IMG/VR virus record: IMGVR_UViG_3300050821_018642
Location: 5,133 to 69,132 of that record
Length of the DNA: 64,000 bases
Direction: 5' to 3' (one strand)
Source of the DNA: a virus
Shown here: in pieces, positions 11,806 to 55,279 of the stretch
How the letters are laid out: each line of letters begins with the position of its first letter
How positions within the stretch are numbered: the stretch's first letter is position 1
Program-made: the position numbers and the translations under genes
Notes under the pieces: model-generated
Databases searched by the model: none
Told to the model about the DNA's origin: nothing
Seen by the model: the letters and a program-made list of their open reading frames with translations, nothing else

Positions 11806-12212
11806 TGGCTGGCGAGACTACCACTCCCAATATAGGATTGCAGATAGCCGGTTTCGACCAGCCAAATTGGCAGGTTCCCACCAATTACAACTGGAACTTG
11901 CTGGACCTTATTTTCGGCGGCGAGATACAGGTGCCTGCCCTGGACGTCAACGTGCTGACGGTCGCCAGCTTCGTCATCGCCAATTTCGTCGCCAGCGCGG
12001 CGGCGTCGTTCTTCGCCGAGACTCCCGGCGGCACCGTACCAGGAACCGTGTATACGTGCACGTACATACCGGGCGTGGTGCTGGGCGTGTACAAGAACGG
12101 AATCATTCAAAAACCGGGCGTCGGTTACGACTACACGATTTCAGGCAATCAAATCACGTTCTCAACCGCGACCTCTCTCGGAGACAAAATCTATGTCACG
12201 TACTTTCATTAG
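11805..12212 (+). CDS. small fibre protein with YKNG motif
   Basis: Shares GTVPGTVYT...VYKNGIIQKPGVGYDYTISGNQITF with ORF 405..995. Confidence 0.35.
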   Translation: MAGETTTPNIGLQIAGFDQPNWQVPTNYNWNLLDLIFGGEIQVPALDVNVLTVASFVIANFVASAAASFFAETPGGTVPGTVYTCTYIPGVVLGVYKNGIIQKPGVGYDYTISGNQITFSTATSLGDKIYVTYFH

Positions 12213-26471: not shown

Positions 26472-26991
26472 AGCATTCCTCCCATGTAGTGTATACAGCG
26501 TGAATGACCTCGGCTTCCAACGGACTCAACGTGTCGTCCGGGAATGTACGACGGATGTAGTCCTTCCACCGTCGTACGCTGAAGTTCACTTTGCGATTCC
26601 CCATAGCGCGCTCGTCGCAACACCAAAGAATACCGTCCAAGCGATCAGCAAGATCCAGTATACGTCGCTCTTCGAGCGTCAACGGAAATAGCAGATCATA
26701 CTTGGACAGAGTATCAGTTTCCAACTTCTCGAATTTTGCTGAAAACTCTGGGCCCATTTCCCACTTGAACGGTGCTGGCATATCACCGGAAGCTTGCTCG
26801 GCTAGATCGTGCGTGGCTGCCATCATCAGTAGATTGGAGCTAGGCATACCATCGCTTAGAAAGAACACCAGCAGAATAACGCCGTGTTGATGTTGTGCGT
26901 TGGTATTACGTAGAATACCCATACGCGTATGGAATCGCGTTACCAGACCGCCTTCGTGTGCGAACTGTATACGCTCTTTGATTGACTTCAC
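26428..26991 (-). CDS. HD-domain phosphohydrolase (YfbR-like 5'-deoxynucleotidase candidate)
   Basis: H...H(x21)HD...E...GD metal-binding motif spacing: HTRMGILRNTNAQHQHGVILLV...ATHDLAEQASGD. Confidence 0.55.
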   Translation of the reverse strand: MKSIKERIQFAHEGGLVTRFHTRMGILRNTNAQHQHGVILLVFFLSDGMPSSNLLMMAATHDLAEQASGDMPAPFKWEMGPEFSAKFEKLETDTLSKYDLLFPLTLEERRILDLADRLDGILWCCDERAMGNRKVNFSVRRWKDYIRRTFPDDTLSPLEAEVIHAVYTTWEECCGQEGSSRFDIYEV

Positions 26992-28094
26992 TTCTGCCTC
27001 CGCTCAATCCACTCATTACACGCGCGCTTCCAATCCGGCGCTTCTATACCGTCAAGACAGGTGAACATACTGTATGAATCTTTCCATTTGCGATACGTCC
27101 AGGTTAGGAACATCGGAATAGCAACGGTCTCCATGAAAGCTGTATTCATGGGCGGTACGTTGAACGCCGCTTCCCACGCCGCTGGTGTCGGGTCGTTGAT
27201 ACCTACAGTATCAGGCGGTTGTGGTTGACGTATAAGACCGCGCGCCCACGTCATGAACTTCGATAGGTCCTCATCGAAGCCGGGTTCCAGCGCCGGACCC
27301 ATGTCTGGAAGCTTACCTAGTGAATCGCTCTCCAGCGCAATTTGTTCCAGCTTCTCTCGGTTAAAGACATCGGTATAGACATGAAAGTTGTTACTAAACT
27401 GCCGATACACACCCATCGGAATGCCGATGCGCATTGCCATGTACTCGTGGAAGAAACTGAAGTGCACGGCGTTGGCTCCGTAGCAACCCCATATGATGTC
27501 ATTGCTGCGATTGCATACGGTAATATTCAACTTCCCACCGCGACAATCCAGATATACGTGCGTATTGCACGGAACATCCAGACCACCGTGGGTGGCTACC
27601 TGTAGGTCGTGGTCATGTAGATCTGGATTGTCGCGATTCATCGTGCGATTCTGATCGTAATCCCCGGCTCCAGGCCAAGCATTCCACATCGTCAGCACAC
27701 ATCGCCTGGATTTAGGGTCTTTCTTTAACTCTGCTATGATGGCCTCCAGCTGGTCCCAGCCGAAGAAGTTGCGCCAACGCCAGCCGTATGCACCCCACGA
27801 TGTAACGCCGTCGTCGCTATAGGCGCGCATCTGCTTAGCGAAGTATTCGACGAACTCTACGTCGTTGGCACCGCTGAGAATCCAGAGCGATTCCATAACG
27901 TGGAAGAAAGGATTTGCATCACGTAGCGGGCTGAATAGCACGCGGCGACGTGGGTTTACGTACTCCGTAAGCACTGGACCCGGTGCAACGATCACCGAGC
28001 CATTGCGCGATTGTTCCTCTACGCCTTCACGTAGAAGATAGTTGATGCCGATCTGTAATGCGGCATTTACATCATCGGTCTTAAAGCTATACAT
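26988..28094 (-). CDS. thymidylate synthase-family enzyme (dUMP hydroxymethylase candidate)
   Basis: Aligns to ThyA along its length: ESLWILSG, YGWRWRNFFGWDQLEAII..LK.DPKSRRCVLTMWN, VPCNTHVYL..GGKL..CNRSNDIIWG.YGAN. His147 of ThyA is replaced by Asn, and there is a ~100-aa C-terminal extension. Start ATG at 28094 has a GAGGAG RBS. Confidence 0.65.
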   Translation of the reverse strand: MYSFKTDDVNAALQIGINYLLREGVEEQSRNGSVIVAPGPVLTEYVNPRRRVLFSPLRDANPFFHVMESLWILSGANDVEFVEYFAKQMRAYSDDGVTSWGAYGWRWRNFFGWDQLEAIIAELKKDPKSRRCVLTMWNAWPGAGDYDQNRTMNRDNPDLHDHDLQVATHGGLDVPCNTHVYLDCRGGKLNITVCNRSNDIIWGCYGANAVHFSFFHEYMAMRIGIPMGVYRQFSNNFHVYTDVFNREKLEQIALESDSLGKLPDMGPALEPGFDEDLSKFMTWARGLIRQPQPPDTVGINDPTPAAWEAAFNVPPMNTAFMETVAIPMFLTWTYRKWKDSYSMFTCLDGIEAPDWKRACNEWIERRQK

Positions 28095-28965
28095 ACGTCT
28101 CCTCGCTCGGTGTGAAGTGCTGCTTCGCTCTACGTCCAAGGTATTTTACCTTGAAGTACTTTCCTATTTCGCAAAGTGTGTTCTGCGTGTCTTGGGCCGA
28201 CAGACCGTGCAGTTCGCTCGGTAGCTTCGGGAGTGCTGTATCCATCAACTTCAGTAACGTGCTGTGCCACTCTTCTTCATTCCAACGCTCTGTGACGTCG
28301 CGACCCGTTACCCAGTTCAAACCACGTCGCGAGCCTGGACCACTAGCGGCAAAGGTATGCCAGTCGTCAGCGTTCTTGCCGGCCGGAGTGTACTTGACAT
28401 CGCCCACTACCTGCGCTGCCATAAAGCCAGCACCGAATCCGTGGAACTGCATCAGCGAATTATGTAGTCCACGTAGTGATGTACAGGTACGCAGCTCTTC
28501 GCCCAGCGCTTTGCGTCCTGACCACAATGGACCCAGTACGCACGTAGACAGGTAGCTAGCCTTGCTTTGACCTTTGGTAGCGCCAACTGCATTTATCATA
28601 TACGCATTATTGTAGGCGCAAAGACCGCGCTCACGTCGTGCATCCATGATACGTACGAAGCGCTGCGGATTCCAGCGTTCTGGGTAGCCTAGTTCCTCCA
28701 TAGTGGCTGGTAGATTCACCAGCCGTGCAAGGCACATAGCGAATACCACGGTATCATAATCCGTGGCGTGCGGAAGAAGCCATGATCCGTGTATCCATTT
28801 AGTAACGCGGTCGTCGTTACGACGCACGTTCGTAAAGCGGTACTTCTGAAGTATTGGATCCTTGGTCCAGGGTGCTGGTTTACCTTCCAGACGACGTTGA
28901 TGGATGTTCCACCGCTCCGTTACGAAGTCAGTGAATTCCCTAAGCCTTGGAAACAGCTTGCTCAT
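28087..28965 (-). CDS. uncharacterised protein, candidate DNA-modification enzyme
   Basis: 292 aa with no P-loop; translationally coupled between the ThyA-homologue and the nucleotidyltransferase. Confidence 0.4.
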   Translation of the reverse strand: MSKLFPRLREFTDFVTERWNIHQRRLEGKPAPWTKDPILQKYRFTNVRRNDDRVTKWIHGSWLLPHATDYDTVVFAMCLARLVNLPATMEELGYPERWNPQRFVRIMDARRERGLCAYNNAYMINAVGATKGQSKASYLSTCVLGPLWSGRKALGEELRTCTSLRGLHNSLMQFHGFGAGFMAAQVVGDVKYTPAGKNADDWHTFAASGPGSRRGLNWVTGRDVTERWNEEEWHSTLLKLMDTALPKLPSELHGLSAQDTQNTLCEIGKYFKVKYLGRRAKQHFTPSEETYV

Positions 28966-29692
28966 ACGCCTCCAGTTGCTCTGGGGTGCCTACCACATGA
29001 AATTCCTTCTCCGGTATTTCGTGGAGAAGTACGTCGCCCATACGCAGCATATAACTGTGTACTGGAGCTAGGTAGAACTCGCCATTCGTGGAGTTGTCGT
29101 AGAATACCATAGCCGCGATTGCAGCACGTAGCCTACTCCACGTCTTAAATACGTGGACGCCGCACGTAGCCATGTCGCTGATAGGCTGCTTCTCCACGAT
29201 GCGTGTAACTTCTTGGCCTTCATACTCCACGAAGCTGTAACGCGCGCTACCGTCCGTCGGCTTGAACGTCAGCACCATGGATACGGTGGAACTGAGCGGA
29301 TGTGTGAAGTGCGCCTCCGCGTGCGCTACAAACGCCTTGATAAGCGCTGGATCGATGATACTGTCACAATCCATTACCAGCACCGGCTGGTCTTCGTCCA
29401 GGACGGCTGCGGCTGCAAGAAGCGTCATAGCCGCGCCGCGCTGCGTATGCTGTACGCCGATGATCTTAGGTACGCAATCCTCCGGCGCTTCCGTCCATAC
29501 ATCATGTCGAATGGATTGTGGACATAGTACGATGGCTTCGTGAATTTCCGTACCCAAAGACACAGCCATAGCCTGTCTAAGTGCATACCATATCATAGCA
29601 TGCCCGTTGACCGGTATGAGCGGTTTCATCTGTGTATAGCCAGCGCTTGCAAAGCGATCGCCGCGCCCAGCGGCTAGGATTACTACTTGCAT
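28940..29692 (-). CDS. sugar-1-phosphate (or phospho-alcohol) nucleotidyltransferase
   Basis: N-terminal MQVVILAAGRGDRF...KPLIPVNGHAMI NTP_transferase signature; RBS GGAGGA 6 nt before ATG 29692. Confidence 0.6.
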   Translation of the reverse strand: MQVVILAAGRGDRFASAGYTQMKPLIPVNGHAMIWYALRQAMAVSLGTEIHEAIVLCPQSIRHDVWTEAPEDCVPKIIGVQHTQRGAAMTLLAAAAVLDEDQPVLVMDCDSIIDPALIKAFVAHAEAHFTHPLSSTVSMVLTFKPTDGSARYSFVEYEGQEVTRIVEKQPISDMATCGVHVFKTWSRLRAAIAAMVFYDNSTNGEFYLAPVHSYMLRMGDVLLHEIPEKEFHVVGTPEQLEAYEQAVSKA

Positions 29693-30495
29693 TTGACTTC
29701 CTCCATTCGTTCTTCGAGATTCATTGCGAGGTTCAGTGCCCACTCCCTGGCATGTGGCTGTACCTTGTACAGCCGTACCAGGTGTGTAACGAGGTAGTAA
29801 GCGCAAAGTTCCAGGTTAAGCCGCTCCACTTGTAAGAACGCTTTGATCATCTCGCGTTCCACAACGTCACAGCTAGTGGTACAAGCTATGCTGTCATAAC
29901 CGAAGAACGACTGCAGAAGCTTGCCGCCGTCCAATTCAGCCTCTAGCGGAAGCGGTCTTGTGGATGGATCAATCCACAAGCCACCAGCCATGATGTTCTC
30001 CAGCGTAGGATCACCGTGTACATTCTTCACCATACGGTTTCCAGTTATCCAGCGTGCTCCGCCTTTCCACGTCTGTTTTAGTACTTCACGAAGCGCAGGT
30101 TCTGTTGCCAATTCAAGCTGCTCTTCGTAATCGTACGCACGATCACGCTCAGCTCCGCCTACCCAGTGTGGTACCTTCCACAACACTGATAAGCGTACAA
30201 GTGCATTAGCCGTGTCTTCCATCGTAGCTGGTCCAAGCATAGGCATGAAGTAAGAACACGCATTTTCGTCGGAATCACCGAATTCTACTTCCACGAATAT
30301 TTCTGGGAAATGTCGCATCTTTACAGCTTGACGCACCACTCCCGGTCCGCTCTTGCGTATCCATGGTTCCAGCGTCGCTCCGGAGTTACGCTTCACTTTG
30401 TTATCTATCACCACCACGTTCTCCTGTTCTCCGTACAAGTATTCTTCACAGTCCTTACACAACCCAGATGCCTCCATACAACGTGGACAGCTCAC
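29683..30495 (-). CDS. APH/choline-kinase-fold kinase (anomeric sugar kinase candidate) with N-terminal zinc ribbon
   Basis: Catalytic loop VHGDPTLENIM (HGDxxxxN) and LWIDPS; CPRC...CKDC at the N-terminus; GTGA overlap with the upstream gene. Confidence 0.5.
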   Translation of the reverse strand: MSCPRCMEASGLCKDCEEYLYGEQENVVVIDNKVKRNSGATLEPWIRKSGPGVVRQAVKMRHFPEIFVEVEFGDSDENACSYFMPMLGPATMEDTANALVRLSVLWKVPHWVGGAERDRAYDYEEQLELATEPALREVLKQTWKGGARWITGNRMVKNVHGDPTLENIMAGGLWIDPSTRPLPLEAELDGGKLLQSFFGYDSIACTTSCDVVEREMIKAFLQVERLNLELCAYYLVTHLVRLYKVQPHAREWALNLAMNLEERMEEVKCK

Positions 30496-31352
30496 TTCTT
30501 CACTCCGCTGGACTCGTAGGCCTTCTTCCAGGCCACCACCACTTCCTTGCGCTTGATGGAGCCCTTGTAATCGCGGTCCACCACTTTGACGAACGGCGCG
30601 TGCAGCTTCTGTAGTACGAAGCACTGTGCGTCGCTGTACTCCATGGAGCGCTCGCCCGAGCAGCCTCCGGCCGCACCGAAGCTTCCGTATTCGTTGTTCA
30701 GGAGCTCCACGAAGCTGTGACCCTGTTCGCCTTTACGCAGCATACTCAGTACAACGTGGAAGTCCTCGCGCAGCCCGACGGCATCGAATCGAATCTTGTA
30801 CTTCTTGTAGCGCTCCGGGTCTACACCGAAGGCGTACATCATCCGGCCGTTGATATGCCACGATTCCTTCTGCTTGTCGCTGTGGCGTCGGTGCGCTATA
30901 CCGAGCATGGCCGGTGCGTGAGTGCCGTAGCGGGCGTCCAGTTGCTCAAATAGCTTCAGCAGCACGGCGTCTTTGGGGTAGCGCCGCATCATCAAGGCGG
31001 TCCCGGTTGGAGCTCCAGGCTTGATGCCGTAGGCCTGTCGGTCTTCCTCCCATACACGCCACTTGGGTGGGCACCGTTCGAAGAACGCAATGTCGTCGTC
31101 CATCATAAACAGGAGACGATCTCCGTTCTTCGGTAGGTTCGTCATGATCCAGTGACGTTTGGCCGCGATGGACTTTGTGCCCTTCGCTAGAACCACCTCA
31201 TTGTCTGGGTACAGCGCTTGTAGCGCCTTGGCTTCTTCCGGAAGCGACGGAACCAGTACCACTTCCTTCTGTAACGACGTAGGCAGTGCGCCCAGCGTGA
31301 TCTGTTTGTTTACGCGTCCATGCGTAGGTATGACAAGCGTGATGTTCTTCAC
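30492..31352 (-). CDS. GT-A-like glycosyltransferase
   Basis: N-terminal ITLVIPTHGR and DxD-like FMMDDDIAF; RBS AAGGAG. Confidence 0.45.
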   Translation of the reverse strand: MKNITLVIPTHGRVNKQITLGALPTSLQKEVVLVPSLPEEAKALQALYPDNEVVLAKGTKSIAAKRHWIMTNLPKNGDRLLFMMDDDIAFFERCPPKWRVWEEDRQAYGIKPGAPTGTALMMRRYPKDAVLLKLFEQLDARYGTHAPAMLGIAHRRHSDKQKESWHINGRMMYAFGVDPERYKKYKIRFDAVGLREDFHVVLSMLRKGEQGHSFVELLNNEYGSFGAAGGCSGERSMEYSDAQCFVLQKLHAPFVKVVDRDYKGSIKRKEVVVAWKKAYESSGVKK

Positions 31353-35600: not shown

Positions 35601-35930
35601 TCAGGCGTTTCGCGCGGCGCACTCCGTACAGCGTGTAGTCAGGTCACGTAGCGCCGAGTACCTGTCCACGCGTACAGCGCTGTACAAGCGTAGCGTACGT
35701 ACATGGACGTGACGTAGCGGACTACGATGACGGTAGCCGCGCCGCTGAAGTTCGCGTACAAGCGCTGCGTGTCGACGCTCCAGGCTCTTGGGCTCCACGC
35801 AATTATGCGCAATGAAGCCTTCAATACGCCTTCCACGGCGTAGATGCCCAACGAACATGTGCAGTTCCACGTGCTCACCGAGTAGATGTTTGCGGCACAT
35901 CACACGCGGGTCCACCATCCACATTCTCAT
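35601..35930 (-). CDS. pyrimidine-dimer DNA glycosylase-like protein (Pyr_excise-like)
   Basis: Strong RBS AAGGAGG; N-terminus MRMWMVDPRVMCRKHLLGEHVELH resembles the MRLWSLHP..L...L..E family. Confidence 0.4.
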   Translation of the reverse strand: MRMWMVDPRVMCRKHLLGEHVELHMFVGHLRRGRRIEGFIAHNCVEPKSLERRHAALVRELQRRGYRHRSPLRHVHVRTLRLYSAVRVDRYSALRDLTTRCTECAARNA

Positions 35931-36056
35931 TATTCCTCCTTACTACGGATACGACTGTCGACATCAGTAGTACGCCTCCAAGTATACAGAGCTCGAACAG
36001 ATGTTCTCTACACTGTACGCACACATCCAGATGACGATGGAAACGTTCACCGGCGG

Positions 36057-36404
36057 TCATGGTAGCTTCACTTTCTGCGTGCAATACCCGACGATGCGTC
36101 CATCCGTGTACAGCGCCGTTACGGAGAAGCTTATCTTCTTCCACACACAATACGCCACCAAGTATGGAGTGAACAATCCCATCGATGAGTGATTGACGCA
36201 GCCGTCGCGTTCGAATGCTTCCACCGTCATGCGTACGTTGGAGGCCGTAGGGTACACTCGCCGTACGCCTGGAAACGTCGGTGATTGCCACGGACTTGTT
36301 ACGCGGTAGCGCTTTCGTCCGTCGGCCTTGAGAATTTCCTCGATACCGAGTACGGGAATTTCCTTTGGCCAACGTATGGCGTATATCGGTTTTCCTGTCT
36401 TCAT
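36057..36404 (-). CDS. hypothetical protein
   Basis: Trimmed to the internal ATG with a GGAGGAAGA RBS; the longer track ORF has an Arg-rich junk-like N-terminus. Confidence 0.35.
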   Translation of the reverse strand: MKTGKPIYAIRWPKEIPVLGIEEILKADGRKRYRVTSPWQSPTFPGVRRVYPTASNVRMTVEAFERDGCVNHSSMGLFTPYLVAYCVWKKISFSVTALYTDGRIVGYCTQKVKLP

Positions 36405-36661
36405 TCTTCCTCCACTCTGTCCGGGTGCTCGAAGACGTTGAACTCGATTCCGGCCGCGCTCAACAGGACATCCAGCTTGTGCTCCGTTACGGATCGCTCC
36501 GCCGCGCTGTCGCTGTACACGTCGTCTTCGAATCCGCACGTACAGGACAACGACAGACGACGCTCGGAGTCGATCGGATTTCCTTTGCGCGAGAAGTACT
36601 GGATGGTCCTCCACTGTCGGTTCACCGTATGGATAATCTTTGGCGGTTTCTTAGCACTCAC
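36401..36661 (-). CDS. hypothetical protein
   Basis: 86-aa ORF coupled to its neighbours. Confidence 0.3.
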   Translation of the reverse strand: MSAKKPPKIIHTVNRQWRTIQYFSRKGNPIDSERRLSLSCTCGFEDDVYSDSAAERSVTEHKLDVLLSAAGIEFNVFEHPDRVEEE

Positions 36662-36836
36662 AATGATCTCCTAGCTTTTGAAACCAGCAGTCCGCCGGTT
36701 TACCGTTACGCAGCACTTCTATCCATCCACTCCACGTACCTTTGCCGGCTCGCACGGTAATTATGTCGCCGGTCTTTTTAGCGTCGCGCTTCATGCGTTG
36801 AAGCGTGCAGTAATTGCAAGGCGTGAGTTCACTCAT
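36651..36836 (-). CDS. small zinc-ribbon protein
   Basis: CNYC...CWF..GDHCEC. Confidence 0.3.
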   Translation of the reverse strand: MSELTPCNYCTLQRMKRDAKKTGDIITVRAGKGTWSGWIEVLRNGKPADCWFQKLGDHCEC

Positions 36837-37021
36837 TCCACCTCCTTCAGTATCGCGATGTAGAAACGATCAGCCCACTTCTTGGTATACGAAGCGTCTT
36901 CTTCCGCCTTCAATTCCTTCGCACGACGGAATGCCGTGGCGCGATTCGGCCGCGTATCGACGACCCAGTAGTCGTCGCCTTTGGCTTCGCGGCGTAGGAT
37001 GCTGTACTCTAGAATTGGCAT
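36833..37021 (-). CDS. hypothetical small protein
   Basis: Trimmed to the ATG just downstream of the upstream stop. Confidence 0.3.
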   Translation of the reverse strand: MPILEYSILRREAKGDDYWVVDTRPNRATAFRRAKELKAEEDASYTKKWADRFYIAILKEVE

Positions 37022-37025
37022 TGTA

Positions 37026-37874
37026 CTACCTCCTAGCGATGAATAGTTTCTTACTCGGTGGCTTAAATGGTTTCTCTGCTGGCCCTTTGATGTATGAATC
37101 AACAAATACAGCTCGCAATTCTTTGCGATCAGGTCCACAACGGTACTTGTGCCAATGTTCTTCTACCATCCATCTACAGGTGTAGTCACGATTAGCAGAG
37201 CCTTCACTTTCAGAGTGTTGTAACCGACGCAAAGTCACTACACGATACTCAGCAGGTAGGACATAACCTTTACGTTTTGCCAATGTGCGGCCTATAGACG
37301 TAGATTGCTGTCGTTCGATGGTGGCCAGTTTCTGTGCCATTAAATGAATTATGGCAGCAAACAATCTCAATCGTTTAGACTCACTACTAGCTGATTGTAA
37401 AGGTTTATTTAAAAAGCCTGTAGATTGTAGTAAATGTATTGCACCAACTTTCGCACTGATGTTTGTATACAGAAAGTGTATTGCATTCCAAGGATCTTGT
37501 TCCACAACACCAACAGTAGATGCTGTACACCACAATAAAGTATCTACTGGTTGGCCGTCAAGTAAAGTTGTTCTAGGTAAGTATAAAGCGCCTATAGGTG
37601 ACAAGAATTCTTCCTCTGCCAATACAAACTCCGGAGGCATAGTTTCAGCAGCACGTTCAGCTAACAATAGAAATTCCTCACTTAGAAAGAACTTCTCACC
37701 ATTTTGTAGTACCAGCCCAGCCATTGTGATGTAAGCACGCTGAACATTTGTAGAGTTATCGCCAGTTGCTCTAGGCGGCGGGAGCGCTTTCTGCAGTATT
37801 ACGTTAAACACAGATGTTTTCTCAAAAGCATTCAGTATACTAGCCAGCATTACGCCATCATCCTTTCCGCACAC
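37026..37874 (-). CDS. hypothetical protein encoded in a low-GC island
   Basis: 282-aa ORF; a sampled 100-nt stretch is 33% G+C against ~60% in the flanks. Confidence 0.5.
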   Translation of the reverse strand: MCGKDDGVMLASILNAFEKTSVFNVILQKALPPPRATGDNSTNVQRAYITMAGLVLQNGEKFFLSEEFLLLAERAAETMPPEFVLAEEEFLSPIGALYLPRTTLLDGQPVDTLLWCTASTVGVVEQDPWNAIHFLYTNISAKVGAIHLLQSTGFLNKPLQSASSESKRLRLFAAIIHLMAQKLATIERQQSTSIGRTLAKRKGYVLPAEYRVVTLRRLQHSESEGSANRDYTCRWMVEEHWHKYRCGPDRKELRAVFVDSYIKGPAEKPFKPPSKKLFIARR

Positions 37875-38356
37875 TCCGGGCCGATTCCGCGCTCGACAGA
37901 TTCAGGTACGGTAAGCTTACGGCCGCAGCGTCCGCACGTTCCCTCATGCCAGAACTCCATAGTCTTGCATGATTCACCGCCCTTCGCCATACGCGCTAGA
38001 AAGAAGGTGAACGCCTTCCAGGAAGGTGCGTCGACCGTCATGCGGCTATTCTTGGTGGCATGGAAGCCGGTGTTGTCGATCAGCCCCATGTAGGCATAAT
38101 CGTTCACATTGTCCGCGCCGCGTAAGAGACTTACGAAGTAAGTTTGTCCGTACTTAGCTACGCGGTCCGCATCGTTATCCTTCGGCTTACGTACCTTGTA
38201 CGTATACCTAGCTCGTGTCTGTACAGACACGAGCGTGAACGTAGCATTACCACCGAATACGAAGCGCCAGATGTCATCCCATTTCTCAAGTCGACCACGT
38301 TGACGATCAGGATCTACTTGGAAAGTGCGTGGTTCTTCAACTATAGATGAATTCAT
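37850..38356 (-). CDS. hypothetical protein with C-terminal zinc ribbon
   Basis: 168 aa; CKTMEFWHEGTCGRCGRK. Confidence 0.4.
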   Translation of the reverse strand: MNSSIVEEPRTFQVDPDRQRGRLEKWDDIWRFVFGGNATFTLVSVQTRARYTYKVRKPKDNDADRVAKYGQTYFVSLLRGADNVNDYAYMGLIDNTGFHATKNSRMTVDAPSWKAFTFFLARMAKGGESCKTMEFWHEGTCGRCGRKLTVPESVERGIGPECAERMMA

Positions 38357-38582
38357 GGCACGCTCCTCCCTTGTAAGCGCGCACGATGCGGCTCAACGGT
38401 CCGAACGAATCGCGCTCGCCCATGTGGAACGTGACGCGTTCGTAGCCGGCAGCTTCCAAGGCAGGCTTGGCCACCAAGTCCTCCCACTGCCAGTAGAACT
38501 CACCGCAGTAATCGTGCCCGGCGGCCAACGATTGCGGTATGACGTCGAATAAGTCTTTGTATCTACTACGCACCTTGGGCAT
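38337..38582 (-). CDS. hypothetical protein
   Basis: 81-aa ORF in the coupled early block. Confidence 0.3.
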   Translation of the reverse strand: MPKVRSRYKDLFDVIPQSLAAGHDYCGEFYWQWEDLVAKPALEAAGYERVTFHMGERDSFGPLSRIVRAYKGGACHEFIYS

Positions 38583-38817
38583 CGAGCATGTCCTCCTTCA
38601 GAGTATAGCTGACCAGCTCCTTTGGCCCGTCAACTACGCAAGCCACGAATAAGTCGCGGTTGTTGAATGCTGGGTGATTCATAAACAACCAAAGCGCGTG
38701 CTTGGCGTCAGAAGCTTGCACTTCCCATTTACTCGTCTGACGAGGGAACCTATTGCTGCGCAAAAAGACTACGGTGAACGGCTTAAGCACTGAGCTCATG
38801 TCGCCTCCATGCTCCAC
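38566..38817 (-). CDS. hypothetical protein
   Basis: 83-aa ORF. Confidence 0.3.
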   Translation of the reverse strand: MEHGGDMSSVLKPFTVVFLRSNRFPRQTSKWEVQASDAKHALWLFMNHPAFNNRDLFVACVVDGPKELVSYTLKEDMLDAQGA

Positions 38818-39130
38818 TGGGTGATGGCATGTAAACCGCGTGGACGTCCTTCTTGACGCTGCGCCCTGTCAGCGATACGCGATGGGACACCCAATTGCCG
38901 CTGTACGCATCCAGGTTCTCGATCCATACCGTAGGGTCGACGAAGTACAGCGGCACGTACTTACCCTTGAGTTCGCGCGCTTCGCGGCGGTCGCGGTCGC
39001 GCCTCTTGGCCTTGCGCTGCCGCGACGAGTCTGGATGCGGGTGCGGCGCGCCGAAGAAGAGCTCCGTCAACATGCCCTGGATGAACAGCTTGTGGCAGAC
39101 TTCCGGGTGTATCTCAATCACTTTCATCAT
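38783..39130 (-). CDS. hypothetical protein
   Basis: 115-aa ORF. Confidence 0.3.
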   Translation of the reverse strand: MMKVIEIHPEVCHKLFIQGMLTELFFGAPHPHPDSSRQRKAKRRDRDRREARELKGKYVPLYFVDPTVWIENLDAYSGNWVSHRVSLTGRSVKKDVHAVYMPSPSGAWRRHELSA

Positions 39131-39296
39131 CGTCCTCCGTATCCACGAAACCCAGGTCCGCGTTCAGCCGCTCCACGGCGTCGGCTTTCAGCATCAAGCG
39201 TTTTGCACCGGCTGGGATGTCCAGGCACGCGTCGTTCAACAGACCCTCCGTGATGTCGTCGTACGTAAGTACGAGTACGTTACCAGTCAGTATCAT
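39114..39296 (-). CDS. hypothetical acidic small protein
   Basis: 60 aa with a DTEDDDESD tail. Confidence 0.25.
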   Translation of the reverse strand: MILTGNVLVLTYDDITEGLLNDACLDIPAGAKRLMLKADAVERLNADLGFVDTEDDDESD

Positions 39297-39625
39297 AGCA
39301 CCACCTTCGCGCAGTTGACCGTCAAGTCCTCGTACTTCTCACTGATCAAGTCGCACGCCGTATGCATAGCGTGCCACAGGTTATCCAGCACTCGGTATTG
39401 GCTAGTGCCGTGCATGCGGTCTCGCTGCTCCATTATCTTCAACGAGGTGTCGAAGTTACGGAACGGCCAGACTACATCTATCTTGCGATCCAGTGGCTTG
39501 GACCGCAGTAGCAACTGCGCTAGGAATCCGTTCTCACGCGCGGTACCGAACTTGGTTTCATCGCCTATCTTGCACCCGGCCATGACACATACGCAGTCGT
39601 AGTGCAGCTTCGCCAACTCCACCAA
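39293..39625 (-). CDS. hypothetical protein
   Basis: 110-aa ORF. Confidence 0.3.
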   Translation of the reverse strand: MVELAKLHYDCVCVMAGCKIGDETKFGTARENGFLAQLLLRSKPLDRKIDVVWPFRNFDTSLKIMEQRDRMHGTSQYRVLDNLWHAMHTACDLISEKYEDLTVNCAKVVL

Positions 39626-39689
39626 GGCGTGAGCCTCCTCGCGGTGAAGGAGACCTTGAGTTCCACATGGTAGGAATACTCCAGGTAGT

Positions 39690-39962
39690 TCACGGCTGTA
39701 CCTCCTCGATGCCGCAGGACGTGAACGTCATGTCGTCTCCGCTGGAGCTGAACGTCACGGTCTTGCCGTCGTCCAGCGTCAGTATGTAGGTTCCCTCGTT
39801 GGTCGGATCGTAGTCCACAACGTTGATGGTGCGTCCGACCAACACGCGCAGTCGCTTTACCTCAGCCTTCGCCGCCCTATTCGCGTCGCGCTTCGCAGCT
39901 TCCACGGCGCGCAATTCCTCGCGCCGACGTTTCATAACAGATTTCATCGCCGGATAAGTCAC
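39690..39962 (-). CDS. hypothetical basic protein
   Basis: GTG start with AAGGAGG 6 nt upstream; the longer track ORF has a junk-like N-terminus. Confidence 0.3.
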   Translation of the reverse strand: MTYPAMKSVMKRRREELRAVEAAKRDANRAAKAEVKRLRVLVGRTINVVDYDPTNEGTYILTLDDGKTVTFSSSGDDMTFTSCGIEEVQP

Positions 39963-40089
39963 AGACGGCCTCCTTGCACGAGGTGCGTCTCTACATATGC
40001 CACCACTACTTGCGTCACCATGAACACCACACGGATGGTTACGAGTCCTACTACGAACGGTACGATGCGCTGCGCCCAGCGCGCGGCGT

Positions 40090-40302
40090 TCACGCAGCAC
40101 CTCCGGTGACAAGGCAGCCCCACATCAAAACAGGGGAGGCAATCGGATGCAGTTTGACGTTCGTCATCAATTCAAAGTCCGACCCACAAGGTACGTAGGA
40201 CACGCTGATAATGGAGTCTTCGACGTACAGCGCATCTTCGTAACCAGCCGGAACATACCTAGTGCCTTCTTCGAGTATGAGTTGCTCCAGAAGAGTCGTC
40301 AT
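40090..40302 (-). CDS. hypothetical protein
   Basis: Trimmed to the ATG overlapping the upstream stop. Confidence 0.3.
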   Translation of the reverse strand: MTTLLEQLILEEGTRYVPAGYEDALYVEDSIISVSYVPCGSDFELMTNVKLHPIASPVLMWGCLVTGGAA

Positions 40303-40544
40303 GCGCTCACCGCCTTCATCGCGCCGATGTGTCGAATGCCGGTATCCAGCGTTATGACGCTGTAGCCGGAACGTAGAAGATCCAGCTGCGCTTCTGCGGC
40401 TCCACGTGAGCCCCATGTGGTGGACGGAACCACACCGTTGTAAACAAGCATCCAGTGTCCCCTGAGACAGAACACTTCGTTGGGAAGTAGCTTCACTTTC
40501 GCGGCTACGTCGTAGTCGCGGTTTACCTTTCTGGTTGTCTTCAT
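40299..40544 (-). CDS. hypothetical protein
   Basis: Start moved to the Met at 40544 because a promoter-like TATAAT plus a conserved RBS stem-loop lie inside the longer ORF. Confidence 0.35.
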   Translation of the reverse strand: MKTTRKVNRDYDVAAKVKLLPNEVFCLRGHWMLVYNGVVPSTTWGSRGAAEAQLDLLRSGYSVITLDTGIRHIGAMKAVSA

Positions 40545-40578
40545 GATGGATAGCGGTCCTTTCCGAGCCGCTGTATTC

Positions 40579-40598
40579 ATTATAAACCAGCTGGTTTA
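40579..40598 (-). promoter_or_regulatory. promoter-like TATAAT overlapping perfect palindrome TAAACCAGCTGGTTTA
   Basis: Seen in sequence; a similar element lies at 57082..57101. Confidence 0.35.
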
Positions 40599-40609
40599 TT
40601 GCGTACGAA

Positions 40610-43551: not shown

Positions 43552-43719
43552 GTGTAAGCCTCGCTTCTATTTGTTGGTTGTGGATGGTAGCAATGTGCAA
43601 TCCTACGGGCCACTTCGTGGCGTACGCCACAATTACGTAGCTACCATCAGCTTGTACTGCGTAGATAGGATAAGCCGTCCTAATCATCACAGTCGCTTCA
43701 ATATCACTTTGTATCCACT

Positions 43720-44478
43720 TCACATCTTCTCCGGGCACGGGCCTCCTTTGGACTTCGCAAACTTACACCACTGACAATGCCGCCCGGTGCGAGTCTTGAA
43801 CGTGGTGTCCGTCATCATCTGACGGGTACGCGCTATCCACTCATTCTGTAGCGGCTTCAGGTTCTTCATGGTGAATTTCTCCGTGGCTGACTGGCCGGTA
43901 TCAGCGTACACATGCTGCGCCGTTAGCTGCACGGCTTTGTCACCACCAGCCAGCTGACCTATCTGCACCAGTCGTAGACCGCCCAGCGCGTACAGGCTAC
44001 GCTGCTGCTTATGCTCTGGATGCACGCGCCCAGTCTTCCAATCGATGATGTCCACCGTGGGCGGAGTAACTGTATCCGCGCAGATGTCGGTCTTGATACG
44101 CAGCCACGCAGCTTTCCAGTCGCGCCAATCTACCGGATTCCACTTCTTGTCGAAGGCCCACTCCTGCTCTGTACGCGCTTTGGCTGCGCGCATACGCATA
44201 AGCTGTTCCTTTATTGGCTCCATCTCCGGAGTAAGCTTCGGTACCTTACCTTTACCGCTTACAATGCTTGCAGCCGTGTCATGTACACGATTGCCCTTTA
44301 CGAACGCAGGATTCTCCGGCTCCTGGATGCGTATGCGCATGATTTTATCCAGGCACACGCTGAACGGGCAGTTGATGTATTGCTGGTAGACAGAATACGA
44401 CCAAGACGTTAGAGTTGCAAAGCGTCTCTTAGCCAATTGATGCTTCCTTCTCCGCCACGGCGGATGTTTCGGTTTCAT
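43720..44478 (-). CDS. Cas4/RecB-like PD-(D/E)xK nuclease with 4-Cys cluster
   Basis: N-terminal S.S..Y..CP and C-terminal CQWCKF...C; VDIIDWKTG core. Confidence 0.55.
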   Translation of the reverse strand: MKPKHPPWRRRKHQLAKRRFATLTSWSYSVYQQYINCPFSVCLDKIMRIRIQEPENPAFVKGNRVHDTAASIVSGKGKVPKLTPEMEPIKEQLMRMRAAKARTEQEWAFDKKWNPVDWRDWKAAWLRIKTDICADTVTPPTVDIIDWKTGRVHPEHKQQRSLYALGGLRLVQIGQLAGGDKAVQLTAQHVYADTGQSATEKFTMKNLKPLQNEWIARTRQMMTDTTFKTRTGRHCQWCKFAKSKGGPCPEKM

Positions 44479-44902
44479 CCACGGTATACACCGCTACGTG
44501 ATCGTCCAGGTGACCCAGCGCCATCGGGATAAGCCACCGTAAGTTCGGCATTACGTTACTTGGTAATCCTTTGACGTAGAACGGGCCGACTATTTCGTCC
44601 TCCGTTGTAGCGCCGTGATTGACTACAACATCGTTGAAGCAGTGGAAGAATACAACGTTGAAGCCGTCGCCACGCAGAACCAAGAACTTATCCCAGATAT
44701 ACTTGGCCGTGTCGACGCCAGTTTCCTCCTTGAACTCGCGACACATAGCTTCGATTGGCAGTTCGCCTGATTCTATCTTACCGCCAACGCCGTTCCACTT
44801 ATCCACCATGTGGGGAACGTTTGCTGGTGCGCGTTTCTTCTTGATTAGAAGAACACGCGTCTTATCGCTGCTGAATGCGAATCCTACTACGTACTCTTTC
44901 AT
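44429..44902 (-). CDS. Nudix hydrolase
   Basis: Nudix box GGKIESGELPIEAMCREFKEETGV; AAGGAG RBS 9 nt before ATG 44902. Confidence 0.6.
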   Translation of the reverse strand: MKEYVVGFAFSSDKTRVLLIKKKRAPANVPHMVDKWNGVGGKIESGELPIEAMCREFKEETGVDTAKYIWDKFLVLRGDGFNVVFFHCFNDVVVNHGATTEDEIVGPFYVKGLPSNVMPNLRWLIPMALGHLDDHVAVYTVDETETSAVAEKEASIG

Positions 44903-45036
44903 CTTCATCTTCTCCTTCTTTGTTCGTTCTGCGTATACTGCGTCACTCTCCACGTACGCACCATGACCAGGCTCGAAGAAGTCAGGTACGTACACTGCGT
45001 CCGGATGACTGGCCGGCAACATCCGTCTGGAAAGAT

Positions 45037-45585
45037 TCACGGCTTAACTCCTTGTGTACTTACATCTCCGTTGTAACGACCTCGTTTTGCATACGACGCC
45101 CACTCCGGTACGGACGTATGCTTGAAGAATACCATCTGACCTATCTTATCACCCTGGCGTAGCTTGACTGTATGACGTCTAGTCATGTTCTTCAACTCCA
45201 GGGTAAGCACCGAGCCATGCCAACCTGCATCACACCACCCGGCATTTGCGTGATCTACGCCGGTACGCGCTAGTGACGACTTCAGCTTGTACTCAGCGCT
45301 GATCCAATCAGGTAGGTTGAATACCTGCTCGCTCTGCGCCAGTATGAACTCACCCGGTTCCAGGCTGTAGTAATCGTCGTCCGCATCAGCAAACATCCAT
45401 TCACGCATTCCAAGTAATGATTCACGTTTTCGAATGTCAACAACATGCTCGTTACGTGATTCATACAGTATCTTGTTTCCAAGCGTGATGTCGATGGACG
45501 TCGAATTTACGTGTTCTGGTAAGGAGTTAGTGATGACTCCGGCCTTCTGCAACTCGAGAAGCTCTGTGTAACTTAGTAGACTCAT
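45037..45585 (-). CDS. dcd: dCTP deaminase family protein
   Basis: SIDITLG, GWCDAGWHG..TLE and GQMVFF motifs; AAGGAGG RBS. Confidence 0.6.
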   Translation of the reverse strand: MSLLSYTELLELQKAGVITNSLPEHVNSTSIDITLGNKILYESRNEHVVDIRKRESLLGMREWMFADADDDYYSLEPGEFILAQSEQVFNLPDWISAEYKLKSSLARTGVDHANAGWCDAGWHGSVLTLELKNMTRRHTVKLRQGDKIGQMVFFKHTSVPEWASYAKRGRYNGDVSTQGVKP

Positions 45586-47522
45586 GCTACCTCCTTGAAT
45601 TTTTCCAGGAATCCCCAATTGGGCCCTACTTCACCGTCGCTCAACATTGGGATGTCTGTTTCAATGCTAAGCATGCATTCCTTCATGATTTTCTGTTCTT
45701 CCTTCATAGCTTTAGGTGGGCAGCTGAAGTTGATCTCGTCATAGACAGTTACCACGAACCTACCGCGACGCTTAGGATGACTATCATACCTGATTAGTGT
45801 CTCCTTAGTAACGTCTGCACCACTTCCTTGTAGCAGATAGTTCAATAATTTGTACTCATAGGTCATATCACGCCCGTAGAACTCACTGTACGTTGGCGGT
45901 TCGCAGTAGTACAACCTACCGCCCCACGTCCTGATGGGCGCGCCGTTAGGCCCATAACTCTTATCACGAGCCAGTTCCTTGAGCTGATCATCCAGTTCCT
46001 TGATGGACGGAACCGCTGCGTTGATGGCTCGCTGGATGATCTGCGCTACCGGCTTATCCTCTTCAGGAAGATGCAAGGCGTCCATCAGTCCGCTCAGACC
46101 CTGTCCGTACACACGACCGAACACGCAGGTCTTAGCCGTATCTCGATCGAAGCTATCACGTAGCATAGCCTCAATCAAGCGTCGCTCGGCCTCAGCACGC
46201 ACATTCTCATGTATGTCGAACTTAGGGTCATTAAGAAAGCCTTGCATTACCTGGCCTTCTTCGAAGTGACCGAAGAGCCTTAATTCTTGCTGATTGAAAT
46301 CGCGCTTTCCCCATTGCTCGCCATTGTCAGGTAAACAGTACTGACGCATATAAGGTAGCTCCGGTACCCTTAGCCAAGCTGGATGTACATACCCGGAGCT
46401 AGCCGCGCGCTTCCATTTTTTAGGAATGTTCAGGAAGTTCGGTCTGGAGCATATAATCCGACCACTTCGTGCGCCAGACATATCCTTACCGCCATTGCGC
46501 GAACTACGCACCTGCGACCAGTTAGGGAACAGCGATCCGTGACCGACTGTACCTAGTTCCAACCAAGGCTCAGCGAACATATTGATACACGTCGCCATCT
46601 GTCCACGGTACTGAAGAGCGTGATACACACGCTTATCCTTGAAGCGGTCCAGTATCAGGTACTTCTTACTGACACTGAGCTGCCCCTTGGGCGTGCGTTT
46701 GAATTCAGTAACAATACCTTTGTTGTAAAGTGCCTCACCCAGCTGGCGGTCGCTATCGATGTTATCGATGCCGAGGCGCTTCCTGAGCCACACATCAGCC
46801 TTTTCAACTCCGGCCTTCATCGCCGGCAGATCGCGCTCTAGGCCGTCCACGTCCGTACGCATACCTACACGTGCGTTACGTAGTAGGATTGGCATTAAAC
46901 GACGATCGCGGTCGTACGCCTTACCCATCTCCGCATCTATAATGCGTGGATACAGAAGGTTGAATAGCCTACCAGTGCGTACTAGATCTCCCTTGTGGTA
47001 TGGCTTCACTATTTGATACGGGCACATCCATAGATACTGACCCCATTCACTAGGCTTCTTCTTAGCCTCCGGAACATTGGCTAGTACCCACTCCTTGACG
47101 CGATCCTGCTCCTCCGGCGGGATACCGAGTAACCGTTCTGCCGTAGGCTTCAACGCTAGCGACTCAGCGTGCGGATCATCCAGGAACGTCAGATACATAG
47201 TATCATAGGTACGTTCCCATGGTAAAATTGGTAAATCCCAGTGCGCCTCAGCCACATCATGGTCGAATGATCCATACTGTGTAAGTATTGGATAGCGGCT
47301 GTTGTACGCCTTGACTAGCTCACCGCGCCCCTGCTTCTCCGTGCAGTTATTACCGTGAGCCTTAGTACCATCGCCGTGACCCCACGCCATCAATATGTAA
47401 TCCGACCGGTCAGGCCACTTGAGTGCCAGCGACACCGCTTTGGGTGGGTAGTTAGGACGAGGTAGAATACCCTTAGTCTCAAAATCGAAGATTATACAAT
47501 CGGGAGCCTTAGTGCGTGGCAC
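45582..47522 (-). CDS. DNA polymerase I family (3'-5' exonuclease plus polymerase; no 5' nuclease domain)
   Basis: Exo I IFDFET; motif A region RRLMPIL; motif B R....K...FGRVYG; motif C VYDEINF; GTG start with GGAG RBS. Confidence 0.85.
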   Translation of the reverse strand: MPRTKAPDCIIFDFETKGILPRPNYPPKAVSLALKWPDRSDYILMAWGHGDGTKAHGNNCTEKQGRGELVKAYNSRYPILTQYGSFDHDVAEAHWDLPILPWERTYDTMYLTFLDDPHAESLALKPTAERLLGIPPEEQDRVKEWVLANVPEAKKKPSEWGQYLWMCPYQIVKPYHKGDLVRTGRLFNLLYPRIIDAEMGKAYDRDRRLMPILLRNARVGMRTDVDGLERDLPAMKAGVEKADVWLRKRLGIDNIDSDRQLGEALYNKGIVTEFKRTPKGQLSVSKKYLILDRFKDKRVYHALQYRGQMATCINMFAEPWLELGTVGHGSLFPNWSQVRSSRNGGKDMSGARSGRIICSRPNFLNIPKKWKRAASSGYVHPAWLRVPELPYMRQYCLPDNGEQWGKRDFNQQELRLFGHFEEGQVMQGFLNDPKFDIHENVRAEAERRLIEAMLRDSFDRDTAKTCVFGRVYGQGLSGLMDALHLPEEDKPVAQIIQRAINAAVPSIKELDDQLKELARDKSYGPNGAPIRTWGGRLYYCEPPTYSEFYGRDMTYEYKLLNYLLQGSGADVTKETLIRYDSHPKRRGRFVVTVYDEINFSCPPKAMKEEQKIMKECMLSIETDIPMLSDGEVGPNWGFLEKFKEVA

Positions 47523-54991: not shown

Positions 54992-55279
54992 TCCACATCC
55001 TCCTCTTCCACTACCTTGGGCGCGCCAGAATTAGCGCGAATCAGCAGTATTGCAACAACGAACGCCACCAGCCAACCCAATGCCTCGATTACACGTATCA
55101 CCTTGGGCCTCTCGCTCAGTAATTTACTAGAAAGTCTCCTTCTTTACTGATAACTACTTCATCAGTAGTTACAAGTTCCAACATTCTGTCACCTTCGCGA
55201 TAATCATACTGATACTCAGCGCGTTTAACTATTGCATCTTGCGGTAGCTTCTTTAGTAATTCGATGTATTCAGCTACTG

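Follow-up and report, generated by a model that had tools for sequence, protein, structure and literature searches.

An AT-rich accessory gene in the replication gene string of an uncultured tailed phage encodes a member of a large family of proteins with a predicted AcrVA2/FinQ-like fold

The gene of interest is an AT-rich gene on the minus strand (37026..37850) of the window, by which we mean the whole 64-kb stretch of DNA analysed here, comprising most of the ~69-kb genome of an uncultured tailed phage. Our preferred reading, to which we assign a probability of roughly 55%, is that this is an accessory gene acquired into a string of early genes, and that its product has the fold of the AcrVA2 and FinQ proteins and, by analogy with these, may act as a target-specific silencer. 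The functional part of this reading (namely, that the window protein works in the manner of AcrVA2 and FinQ) falls somewhat short of even odds when taken by itself. What is new here is that the very large, unannotated phage protein family to which the gene product belongs can be tied, through its fold and one short motif, to the AcrVA2/FinQ silencers, from which its residue set diverges.

The structural genes of the phage, a tail sheath gene among them, lie on the plus strand, and the minus strand carries a long string of genes for replication and nucleotide metabolism. This string includes genes encoding an SNF2 helicase, a DUF6011 protein, a denV-like glycosylase and a DUF2786/DUF7168 protein; a thymidine-hypermodification set (TAGT, HMUDK_hel and a thymidylate-synthase-like gene) is also found on the minus strand. 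No close cultured phage was found when the 4 kb surrounding the AT-rich gene were compared, by megablast, with 50,697 phage records. The AT-rich gene has a conserved neighbour on either side: upstream, the gene for the DUF6011-containing protein (37850..38356, minus strand, 168 aa; PF19474, E = 2.6e-15; phrog_20259) and, further downstream, that for the denV-like pyrimidine-dimer DNA glycosylase (35601..35930, minus strand, 109 aa; PF03013, E = 7.6e-15). These two genes are the left and right anchors, respectively, of the indel described below.

A preliminary description of this region reported an intact, 282-aa open reading frame in the same orientation as the operon, and a check against the list of open reading frames finds it at 37026–37874 on the minus strand, counted from a GTG codon at 37874. 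The true start is likely to be the ATG codon at 37850–37848, from which a product of 274 aa is encoded up to the TAG stop codon at 37028–37026. The 274-aa product is called in two public assemblies, and in alignments of the family the N-termini of other members line up with the one that begins at this ATG, A8 and E10 being conserved. The GTG-initiated 5' extension (37851..37874, minus strand) is contained in the 3'-terminal part of the upstream gene, and its translation as part of the AT-rich gene is improbable. The 24-nt overlap previously reported for the 5' end is thus an artefact of choosing the longest reading frame; with the ATG start, the overlap shrinks to the single base that the upstream stop codon (TAA, 37852–37850) shares with the start codon (TAATG). 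Similarly, the gap between the stop codon and the start of the next gene is 4 nt (37025–37022; next ATG at 37021), rather than the 5 nt first given. An AGGAGG (37029..37034, minus strand), supplied by the final two Arg codons of the AT-rich gene, is located 7 nt upstream of the ATG at 37021, and this is likely to be the Shine-Dalgarno sequence of the next gene, with translational coupling as the consequence. Judged from the nucleotide sequence, then, the AT-rich gene is translationally coupled to both of its neighbours, by TAATG upstream and by AGGAGG downstream.

The base composition of the gene sets it apart from the rest of the window. The AT-rich reading frame (37026–37874) contains 42.8% G+C and positions 37381–37480 exactly 33%, in keeping with the sampled value (33%) and the range for the gene (35–45%) that had been estimated from the sequence; the neighbouring genes, put at ~60% in the same estimate, measure 52–59%. 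Across the window the mean is 55.6% (849-nt sliding windows, standard deviation 3.4%), and the sliding-window profile reaches its 64-kb minimum on the AT-rich gene (42.4% at 37001, ~3.9 standard deviations under the mean), bearing out the proposed low-GC island. The deficit is greatest at third codon positions: G+C content by codon position is 52/42/34%, and GC3 is 0.336, compared with 0.623 ± 0.097 in the 84 other open reading frames (z = -3.0). Measured in windows of 100 nt, the G+C fraction changes in a step at each end of the gene, dropping from 0.59 to 0.42 where the stop codon lies (~37025) and rising from 0.46 to 0.54 where the start codon lies (~37850). The island is genuine, gene-sized and beyond what chance would produce.

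The preliminary description regarded the gene as a moron. Morons are accessory genes of lambdoid phages that are transcribed autonomously, and the AT-rich gene resembles them in being accessory, in its deviant composition, in its insertion between conserved genes and in its absence from a relative. Unlike a classical moron, it lacks a promoter and a terminator of its own, is coupled on both sides, and is part of a string of lytic early genes, not of a late or lysogeny region. A consensus scan of 5.2 kb, covering promoters of the sigma-70 type only, gave 4 promoter-like and 6 terminator-like sites (4.1 and 4.6, respectively, were expected from shuffles), with no suitably placed sites around the AT-rich gene. 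This lack of any excess indicates that the gene is embedded in the operon rather than being an autonomous moron, and the label does not apply in its classical sense. The gene was also considered as a homing endonuclease or another kind of selfish insertion, a reading rejected for want of a nuclease domain or a matching fold.

A relative of the window phage, L021, was identified in a helicase-anchored scan of IMG/VR (the helicases are 69–75% identical), and a metagenome scan gave a second contig of the same arrangement, L022; beyond L022, the metagenome scan yielded only L023, a distant contig of 2.7 kb. A scan of viral contigs with the DUF6011 protein as query found no relative. Comparison of the relatives with the window by tblastx synteny shows that in L021 and L022 the denV-like gene follows directly after the DUF6011 gene, such that the conserved genes that flank the AT-rich gene in the window abut, and the AT-rich gene itself is absent. 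In L021, the DUF6011 gene (12413–13015; product 47% identical to that of the window) overlaps the start of the denV-like gene (13012–13356; 64%). The missing portion is a variable block of five genes and 1.9 kb (35931..37850, minus strand), consisting of the AT-rich gene and four small, minus-strand genes of 62 aa (36833–37021), 61 aa (36651–36836), 86 aa (36401–36661) and 115 aa (36057–36404). With 51–56% G+C and a GC3 of 55–74%, the small genes leave the AT-rich gene as the sole AT-rich one of the block; no PHROG or Pfam matches were obtained for those of the small genes that were searched. An indel of five genes, of which one is AT-rich, points to a history more complex than the insertion of a single gene. 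The AT-rich gene is also present in a second assembly (L001), but this matches the window at 100% identity over 19 kb and is hence not an independent observation.

The earlier view of the gene as an accessory gene of foreign composition thus holds: it is a compositional outlier within its own boundaries and is missing from the closest relative phage. It had also been considered that the homologues might prove to be a conserved core gene of similarly low G+C content. Instead, homologues in four other contexts match their own flanks (gene/flank G+C of 53/53% in L002, 67/68% in L003, 47/51% in L006 and 56/49% in L005), and low G+C content is therefore not a property of the family. Together, the third-position bias, the absence from the relative and the flank-matching homologues favour horizontal acquisition, with a lower-G+C phage gene pool as the probable donor; both the donor and the direction of transfer are what we infer from these sequence features. 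The acquisition cannot be called recent, as previously described, because it is not datable (the relative is merely 65–75% identical in conserved proteins).

Could the gene instead be an old resident, held at low G+C content by selection (for instance on expression level, mRNA structure or the density of modified thymidines), with the relative having lost the block? L021 is a divergent phage and the one independent relative, so that the indel may reflect loss in the L021 lineage; further, the coupling of the gene to its neighbours is seamless, and the phage has a thymidine-hypermodification cluster, such that T content could matter. Set against these points, the deficit is concentrated at third codon positions (GC3 of 0.34 versus 0.62), as a foreign mutational bias predicts, the composition changes in a step at the start codon and at the stop codon, G+C content is normal in the four small genes that vary together with the AT-rich one, and homologues elsewhere match their own flanks. 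We consider long residence very unlikely, and continue with acquisition.

The protein encoded by the AT-rich gene belongs to phrog_15934 (E = 2.5e-19, residues 162–275 of the 282-aa reading frame), with the match covering only the C-terminal 120 positions of the profile. The same family is matched by 32 of 32 aligned relatives (best E = 2.1e-32), and is listed in PHROGs v4 without functional annotation. The preliminary description saw no recognisable domain in the protein, which is correct with regard to Pfam, but not with regard to PHROGs. Searches of Pfam, NCBIfam and PDB sequences gave nothing significant for the window protein, and neither did Pfam searches with the 32 relatives or comparisons of family profiles with the PDB. 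A phmmer search of 1.84 billion representative sequences returned 2,514 relatives at E <= 1e-3 (225 at E <= 1e-10). The family encompasses at least 2,514 clusters at 50% identity, a size that excludes an orphan gene. Its members are mostly 280–340 aa long and can be aligned over their full length. The window protein is a divergent member, with at most 41% identity to any other protein found; in a word-indexed protein search it retrieves itself alone, while the profile of family alignment A1 retrieves four proteins.

Members of the family come almost entirely from uncultured phages, with a few from actinophages and Acidobacteriaceae MAGs. The only tblastn matches were ORF29 of Corynebacterium phage phi16 and, with the typical family member P0015 as query, gp103 of Streptomyces phage Yara; a scan of species-representative genomes for the P0015 clade gave two loci only, both in Acidobacteriaceae MAGs. 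The genes sit amid small genes of unknown function in the early regions of phages and prophages. In the window, L003 and L006, the family gene lies within lytic early/replication strings, and phi16 ORF29 is found near an integrase gene and a putative superinfection-exclusion gene. Recurrent gene neighbours were looked for across the family loci, and none emerged.

Three segments of the family alignment can be described by consensus sequences: (i) the N-terminal segment, 'G(D/E)xF...F..LV..A...P.D..F', (ii) a central helix, '...LMAQ.L', and (iii) the C-terminal module, 'VVTLRR ... W.CQW.VRGHWR.Q.Y ... YIKGP.DKPLKP'. In the window protein, the conserved C-terminal module corresponds to residues 204–263 (37062..37241, minus strand; alignments A1 and A2), contains V-V-T-L-R-R, the W.V..HW motif and Y-I-K-G-P-x-x-K-P-x-K, and is the part that matches phrog_15934 and most phmmer matches. 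Within it, residues 227–237 (W-M-V-E-E-H-W-H-K-Y-R; 37140..37172, minus strand) make up the most highly conserved strand-turn motif of the family, as seen in the alignments. W227, V229, H232 and W233 are invariant or almost so, with H232 and W233 conserved in at least 96% of the family. Invariant residues in the full-length alignment are W107, L207, R208, W227, V229, H232, K255, G256 and P257; the window protein retains all of these, together with R209, W233, P261, K263 and R274. It departs from the family consensus at E230, E231, H234 and Y236 (consensus R, G, R and Q), reading E-E-H-W-H-K-Y where most members read R-G-H-W-R-x-Q, and in this way bears the rarer, AcrVA2-like variant H-W-H-x-Y.

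Structure prediction, one of the checks that the preliminary description had proposed, was carried out with P0015, the query that gave an alignment usable for this purpose. The AlphaFold2 model, built on an alignment of 119 sequences, has a pLDDT of 81 and a pTM of 0.78. A Foldseek search of the PDB with this model gave one fold match, to AcrVA2 (7ci2_A; E = 3.9e-5, probability 1.0), the next match having E > 1. The match spans ~200 residues, and two independent models agree in finding no other such match in the PDB; as far as predicted models can tell, the overall AcrVA2 fold (PDB 7CI1) is shared by the family. AcrVA2, a prophage anti-CRISPR of Moraxella bovoculi (PDB 7CI1/7CI2), is of similar size (~270–330 aa) and, like the window gene, is encoded on a mobile element among early/accessory genes.

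A comparison of sequences places the most conserved part of the family in correspondence with that of AcrVA2 and FinQ. A set of 13 AcrVA2/FinQ sequences, drawn from plasmids, phages and PDB alignments, has a C-terminus that reads '...(V/I)R.Y ... about 20 aa ... RPH(I/L)RRxHWHxYWxG......h.W.P'; FinQ, a fertility inhibitor of IncI plasmids, has this superfamily motif at its C-terminus (KRPHIRRGHWHTYW). In hhalign comparisons of the two families, the central helix, the LRR/VRR and the GHW motif fall in register, with GHW(R/H) of the family set against RRGHWH of AcrVA2/FinQ. AcrVA2 and the family accordingly have in common, in register, a C-terminal '(V/L)RR ... about 20 aa ... x-x-G-H-W-H-x-Y'. 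The profile-profile score of the C-terminal region is 21.9, as compared with 11.8 ± 2.3 for a column-shuffled null (0 of 200 shuffles reach 21.9). In addition, an HMM of the AcrVA2/FinQ sequences matches five members of the phage family (P0132, P0144, P0126, P0045 and P0065; E = 2e-6 to 6e-4; best shuffled control 6.2 bits) at a motif of the complete AcrVA2 type, GHWHxYWxG...RWLxP. The members of this bridging subclade are phmmer relatives of the window protein (E ~1e-12 to 1e-15).

Outside the C-terminal region, the likeness is slight. Identity between AcrVA2 and the family is 9–12%, and the N-terminal and middle parts show no detectable sequence similarity: the score of their profile comparison is not significant (23 of 150 shuffles reach it). 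By eye, 'TF(F/Y)MD..F..LV...(P)DD' of the family resembles 'IY(Q/R)(L/F)D..I......PDD', of which hhalign aligned the PDD tetrapeptide alone. In AcrVA2, the N-terminal residues W79 and D89 are conserved, and their mutation leads to a moderate loss of function. Full-length hhalign between the families is weak (probability 3%, P = 0.014), and hhalign against a single AcrVA2-like sequence was misaligned. HMM-to-sequence comparisons gave ~0 bits, both for the family HMM (alignment A2) against the AcrVA2/FinQ sequences and for the AcrVA2/FinQ HMM against the six-frame reading frames of the window, and the A2 profile found nothing among PDB sequences at E <= 10.

The AcrVA2 counterpart of residues 227–237 is H286-I-R-R-G-H291-W-H-G-Y-W. 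Two of its residues, H286 and R288, correspond to the invariant W227 and V229 of the family, so the HxR feature of the superfamily motif P-H-[IL]-R-R-x-H-W-H-x-[YF]-W is not kept; H291 corresponds to H232, which is kept and, in the window protein, is followed by W-H-x-Y. The lack of conservation of H286 and R288 identifies the family as a divergent sister of AcrVA2 rather than as an ortholog, and we place phrog_15934, with good confidence, in the AcrVA2/FinQ superfamily as a remote branch. From sequence motifs, the family also appears to lie outside the set of ~1,800 homologues that Marino et al. collected by PSI-BLAST: within the part of their Supplementary Table 2 covered by the comparison, GHWH occurs 318 times, and YIKGP, YVKGP, VTLRR, HWRNQ, HWRQQ and GHWR do not occur (three rounds of PSI-BLAST being the homologue criterion; bioRxiv 10.1101/2022.11.29.518452).

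The consequences for function depend on what is known of AcrVA2 and FinQ. AcrVA2 binds the N-terminal Cas12a polypeptide and brings about translation-dependent loss of cas12a mRNA; the C-terminal residues H286, R288 and H291 are needed for this down-regulation, and not for binding (bioRxiv 10.1101/2022.11.29.518452). FinQ, in turn, reduces F tra mRNA (bioRxiv 10.1101/2022.11.29.518452). The route by which AcrVA2 has mRNA destroyed is not established (bioRxiv 10.1101/2022.11.29.518452; PMC13131331). Homologues of AcrVA2 occur on plasmids and in phages from many classes of bacteria, for the most part without Cas12a being present, which hints at targets other than Cas12a; the homologues have been proposed to silence different targets (bioRxiv 10.1101/2022.11.29.518452). 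Applied to the window phage, the AcrVA2 precedent would lead to the following sequence of events: (i) a phage gene of lower G+C content was spliced into the polycistronic early/replication string and coupled to its neighbours, with which it would be expressed early, (ii) the variable N-terminal and middle part of its product recognises one particular protein of a host defence or a rival element, perhaps while it is still a nascent chain, and (iii) the conserved C-terminal module triggers loss of the mRNA encoding the recognised protein. To our knowledge, AcrVA2 so far stands alone among bacterial proteins in recognising a nascent polypeptide and removing the corresponding mRNA.

The anti-defence role envisaged in the preliminary description is plausible, because the sole structural relative in the PDB is an anti-CRISPR; the silencing mechanism assumed by analogy is weakened by the replacement of the residues equivalent to AcrVA2 H286 and R288. 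No anti-Cas12a activity is claimed for the window protein, whose likeness to AcrVA2 is one of fold and motif. The same replacements raise the prospect that the fold has been kept for another function, in which mRNA decay plays no part and the protein acts as a stoichiometric binder or inhibitor of a host protein, or as an RNA- or ribosome-binding regulator of early phage genes. Both of the replaced residues are essential in AcrVA2, and in the family an invariant W and an invariant V stand in their place; sequence similarity is confined to ~30 C-terminal residues; and the family has conserved sequences of its own that AcrVA2 and FinQ lack, namely the YIKGPxDKPLKP with which its members end and, in the P0015 clade, a basic helix (DRATRRRAER). 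On the other hand, the fold match extends well beyond the motif and singles out AcrVA2 for both models, the family retains, in register, the equivalent of H291, the Trp that follows it and the LRR/VRR upstream, and the bridging subclade carries the full AcrVA2-type GHWHxYWxG. We regard a different function, the foremost of the competing readings, as unlikely on balance, while giving it real weight.

A further alternative retains the silencing mechanism and changes its target, making the protein a FinQ-like weapon against a competing phage, plasmid or prophage, with a function in superinfection or competition. FinQ, itself a member of the superfamily, inhibits transfer of the F plasmid, roles in conflicts between mobile elements were proposed by Marino et al. 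(bioRxiv 10.1101/2022.11.29.518452), and the position of phi16 ORF29 near genes for an integrase and putative superinfection exclusion would suit such a role. The genes of the window, L003 and L006, however, lie in lytic early/replication strings and not in a lysogeny module, and no target in a rival element can be named; this alternative strikes us as quite improbable. A toxin or abortive-infection function had been suggested for the gene, and genes of foreign composition and unknown function do sometimes encode toxins, but nothing points in this direction here. A PADLOC search gave no match for the window protein or for two of three family members (the third, P0008, had a non-significant match to PDC-M61A, E = 0.053), and no toxin-like fold was matched. 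That the gene is a non-functional relic is argued against by a reading frame of 274 codons that has stayed intact in DNA of 42% G+C, with the invariant residues of the family conserved. A toxin, an abortive-infection gene or a relic are all readings that we consider scarcely credible.

Beyond the window gene, a more far-reaching proposition can be put forward tentatively, and we are inclined to doubt it in its full form: that phrog_15934 is an unrecognised major branch of AcrVA2/FinQ, whose members would carry out nascent-chain-directed silencing of diverse genes of host defence or rival elements by means of a different C-terminal residue set, W-x-V-R-G-H-W-R, LRR and YIKGPxDKP, with the window copy as a freshly transferred cassette. 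If the link to AcrVA2/FinQ is correct, thousands of phage proteins would share the AcrVA2 fold while differing at two of its three essential residues. Comparison of the families would then reveal which residues are mechanistic, with H291/H232, the LRR and the Trp as the set in common. There would be many more candidates for programmable gene silencers that are specific to a polypeptide, and a large block of phage dark matter would gain a testable function. For the window phage, an exchanged accessory gene would be marked as a candidate counter-defence factor.

L021, the nearest relative phage from IMG/VR, lacks the 1.9-kb block at 35931–37850. Beyond this block, the interval between the SNF2 helicase and DUF6011 genes (window 38357–40609, minus strand) spans about 2.25 kb and holds about nine small genes, whereas the same interval in L021 (11489–12412) is just about 0.9 kb long; similarity between the two is almost nil. 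The early region is strongly mosaic outside the 35931–37850 block as well. L021 also carries, downstream of its denV-like gene, an ORF (13925–14752, plus strand) that encodes about 25 tandem copies of a six-residue unit, G-x-S-I-[EK]-A, with all three frames open on each strand. Its sole match in the window is weak: 43 residues at 37865–37993 (33% identity, 28 bits).

A tblastn search with the DUF6011 neighbour (37850–38356, minus strand) matched 351 phage records—chiefly mycobacteriophages, but also jumbo phages of Caulobacter, Brevundimonas, Rhizobium, Sinorhizobium and Agrobacterium. The conserved part of this protein is its C-terminal CxxC...GIGPEC motif.

Besides the gene under study, the window contains two more ORFs of low G+C, both on the minus strand: a 61-aa ORF at 55116–55301 (G+C 39%, GC3 32%) and a 238-aa ORF at 58160–58876 (G+C 47%, GC3 43%). 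The latter weakly matches the MazG-like dATP/dGTP pyrophosphohydrolase family phrog_801 (E = 1.1e-8). These two ORFs may be further acquired cassettes.

In the structural module, which includes two giant plus-strand ORFs of 1,586 aa (12193–16953) and 1,943 aa (17014–22845), top cultured-phage matches are no more than 25–29% identical; a tail-sheath homologue at 1652–3055 suggests that the phage is contractile-tailed. A thymidine-hypermodification gene set lies on the minus strand (26988–31352, also about 43700–46000). It comprises a thymidylate-synthase-like gene (26988–28139), a 5-hmdU DNA kinase helical domain (PF18723; 28087–28965), an NTP_transferase and a TAGT (PF20691; 30492–31352), while genes for a dCMP deaminase (DCD), a NUDIX protein and a PDDEXK protein are located upstream. 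A hypermodified thymine is probably present in the DNA of this phage.

An AcrVA2/FinQ homologue is found in the jumbo Erwinia phage RisingSun (L018, 101–1102); its GenBank label, 'putative mycothiosynthase', looks like a mis-annotation. Among cultured phages, tblastn found phrog_15934 members only in Corynebacterium phage phi16 (ORF29; L002, 5578–6456), between the lysis genes and an integrase/superinfection-exclusion region, and in Streptomyces phage Yara (gp103; 64116–64373), close to the genome end. The clade of P0015, a typical family member, has only two matches among 185,579 species-representative genomes, both in Acidobacteriaceae MAGs (L024, 3001–3936; L025, 170–325), which hints that much of phrog_15934 belongs to phages of soil or peat Acidobacteriota.
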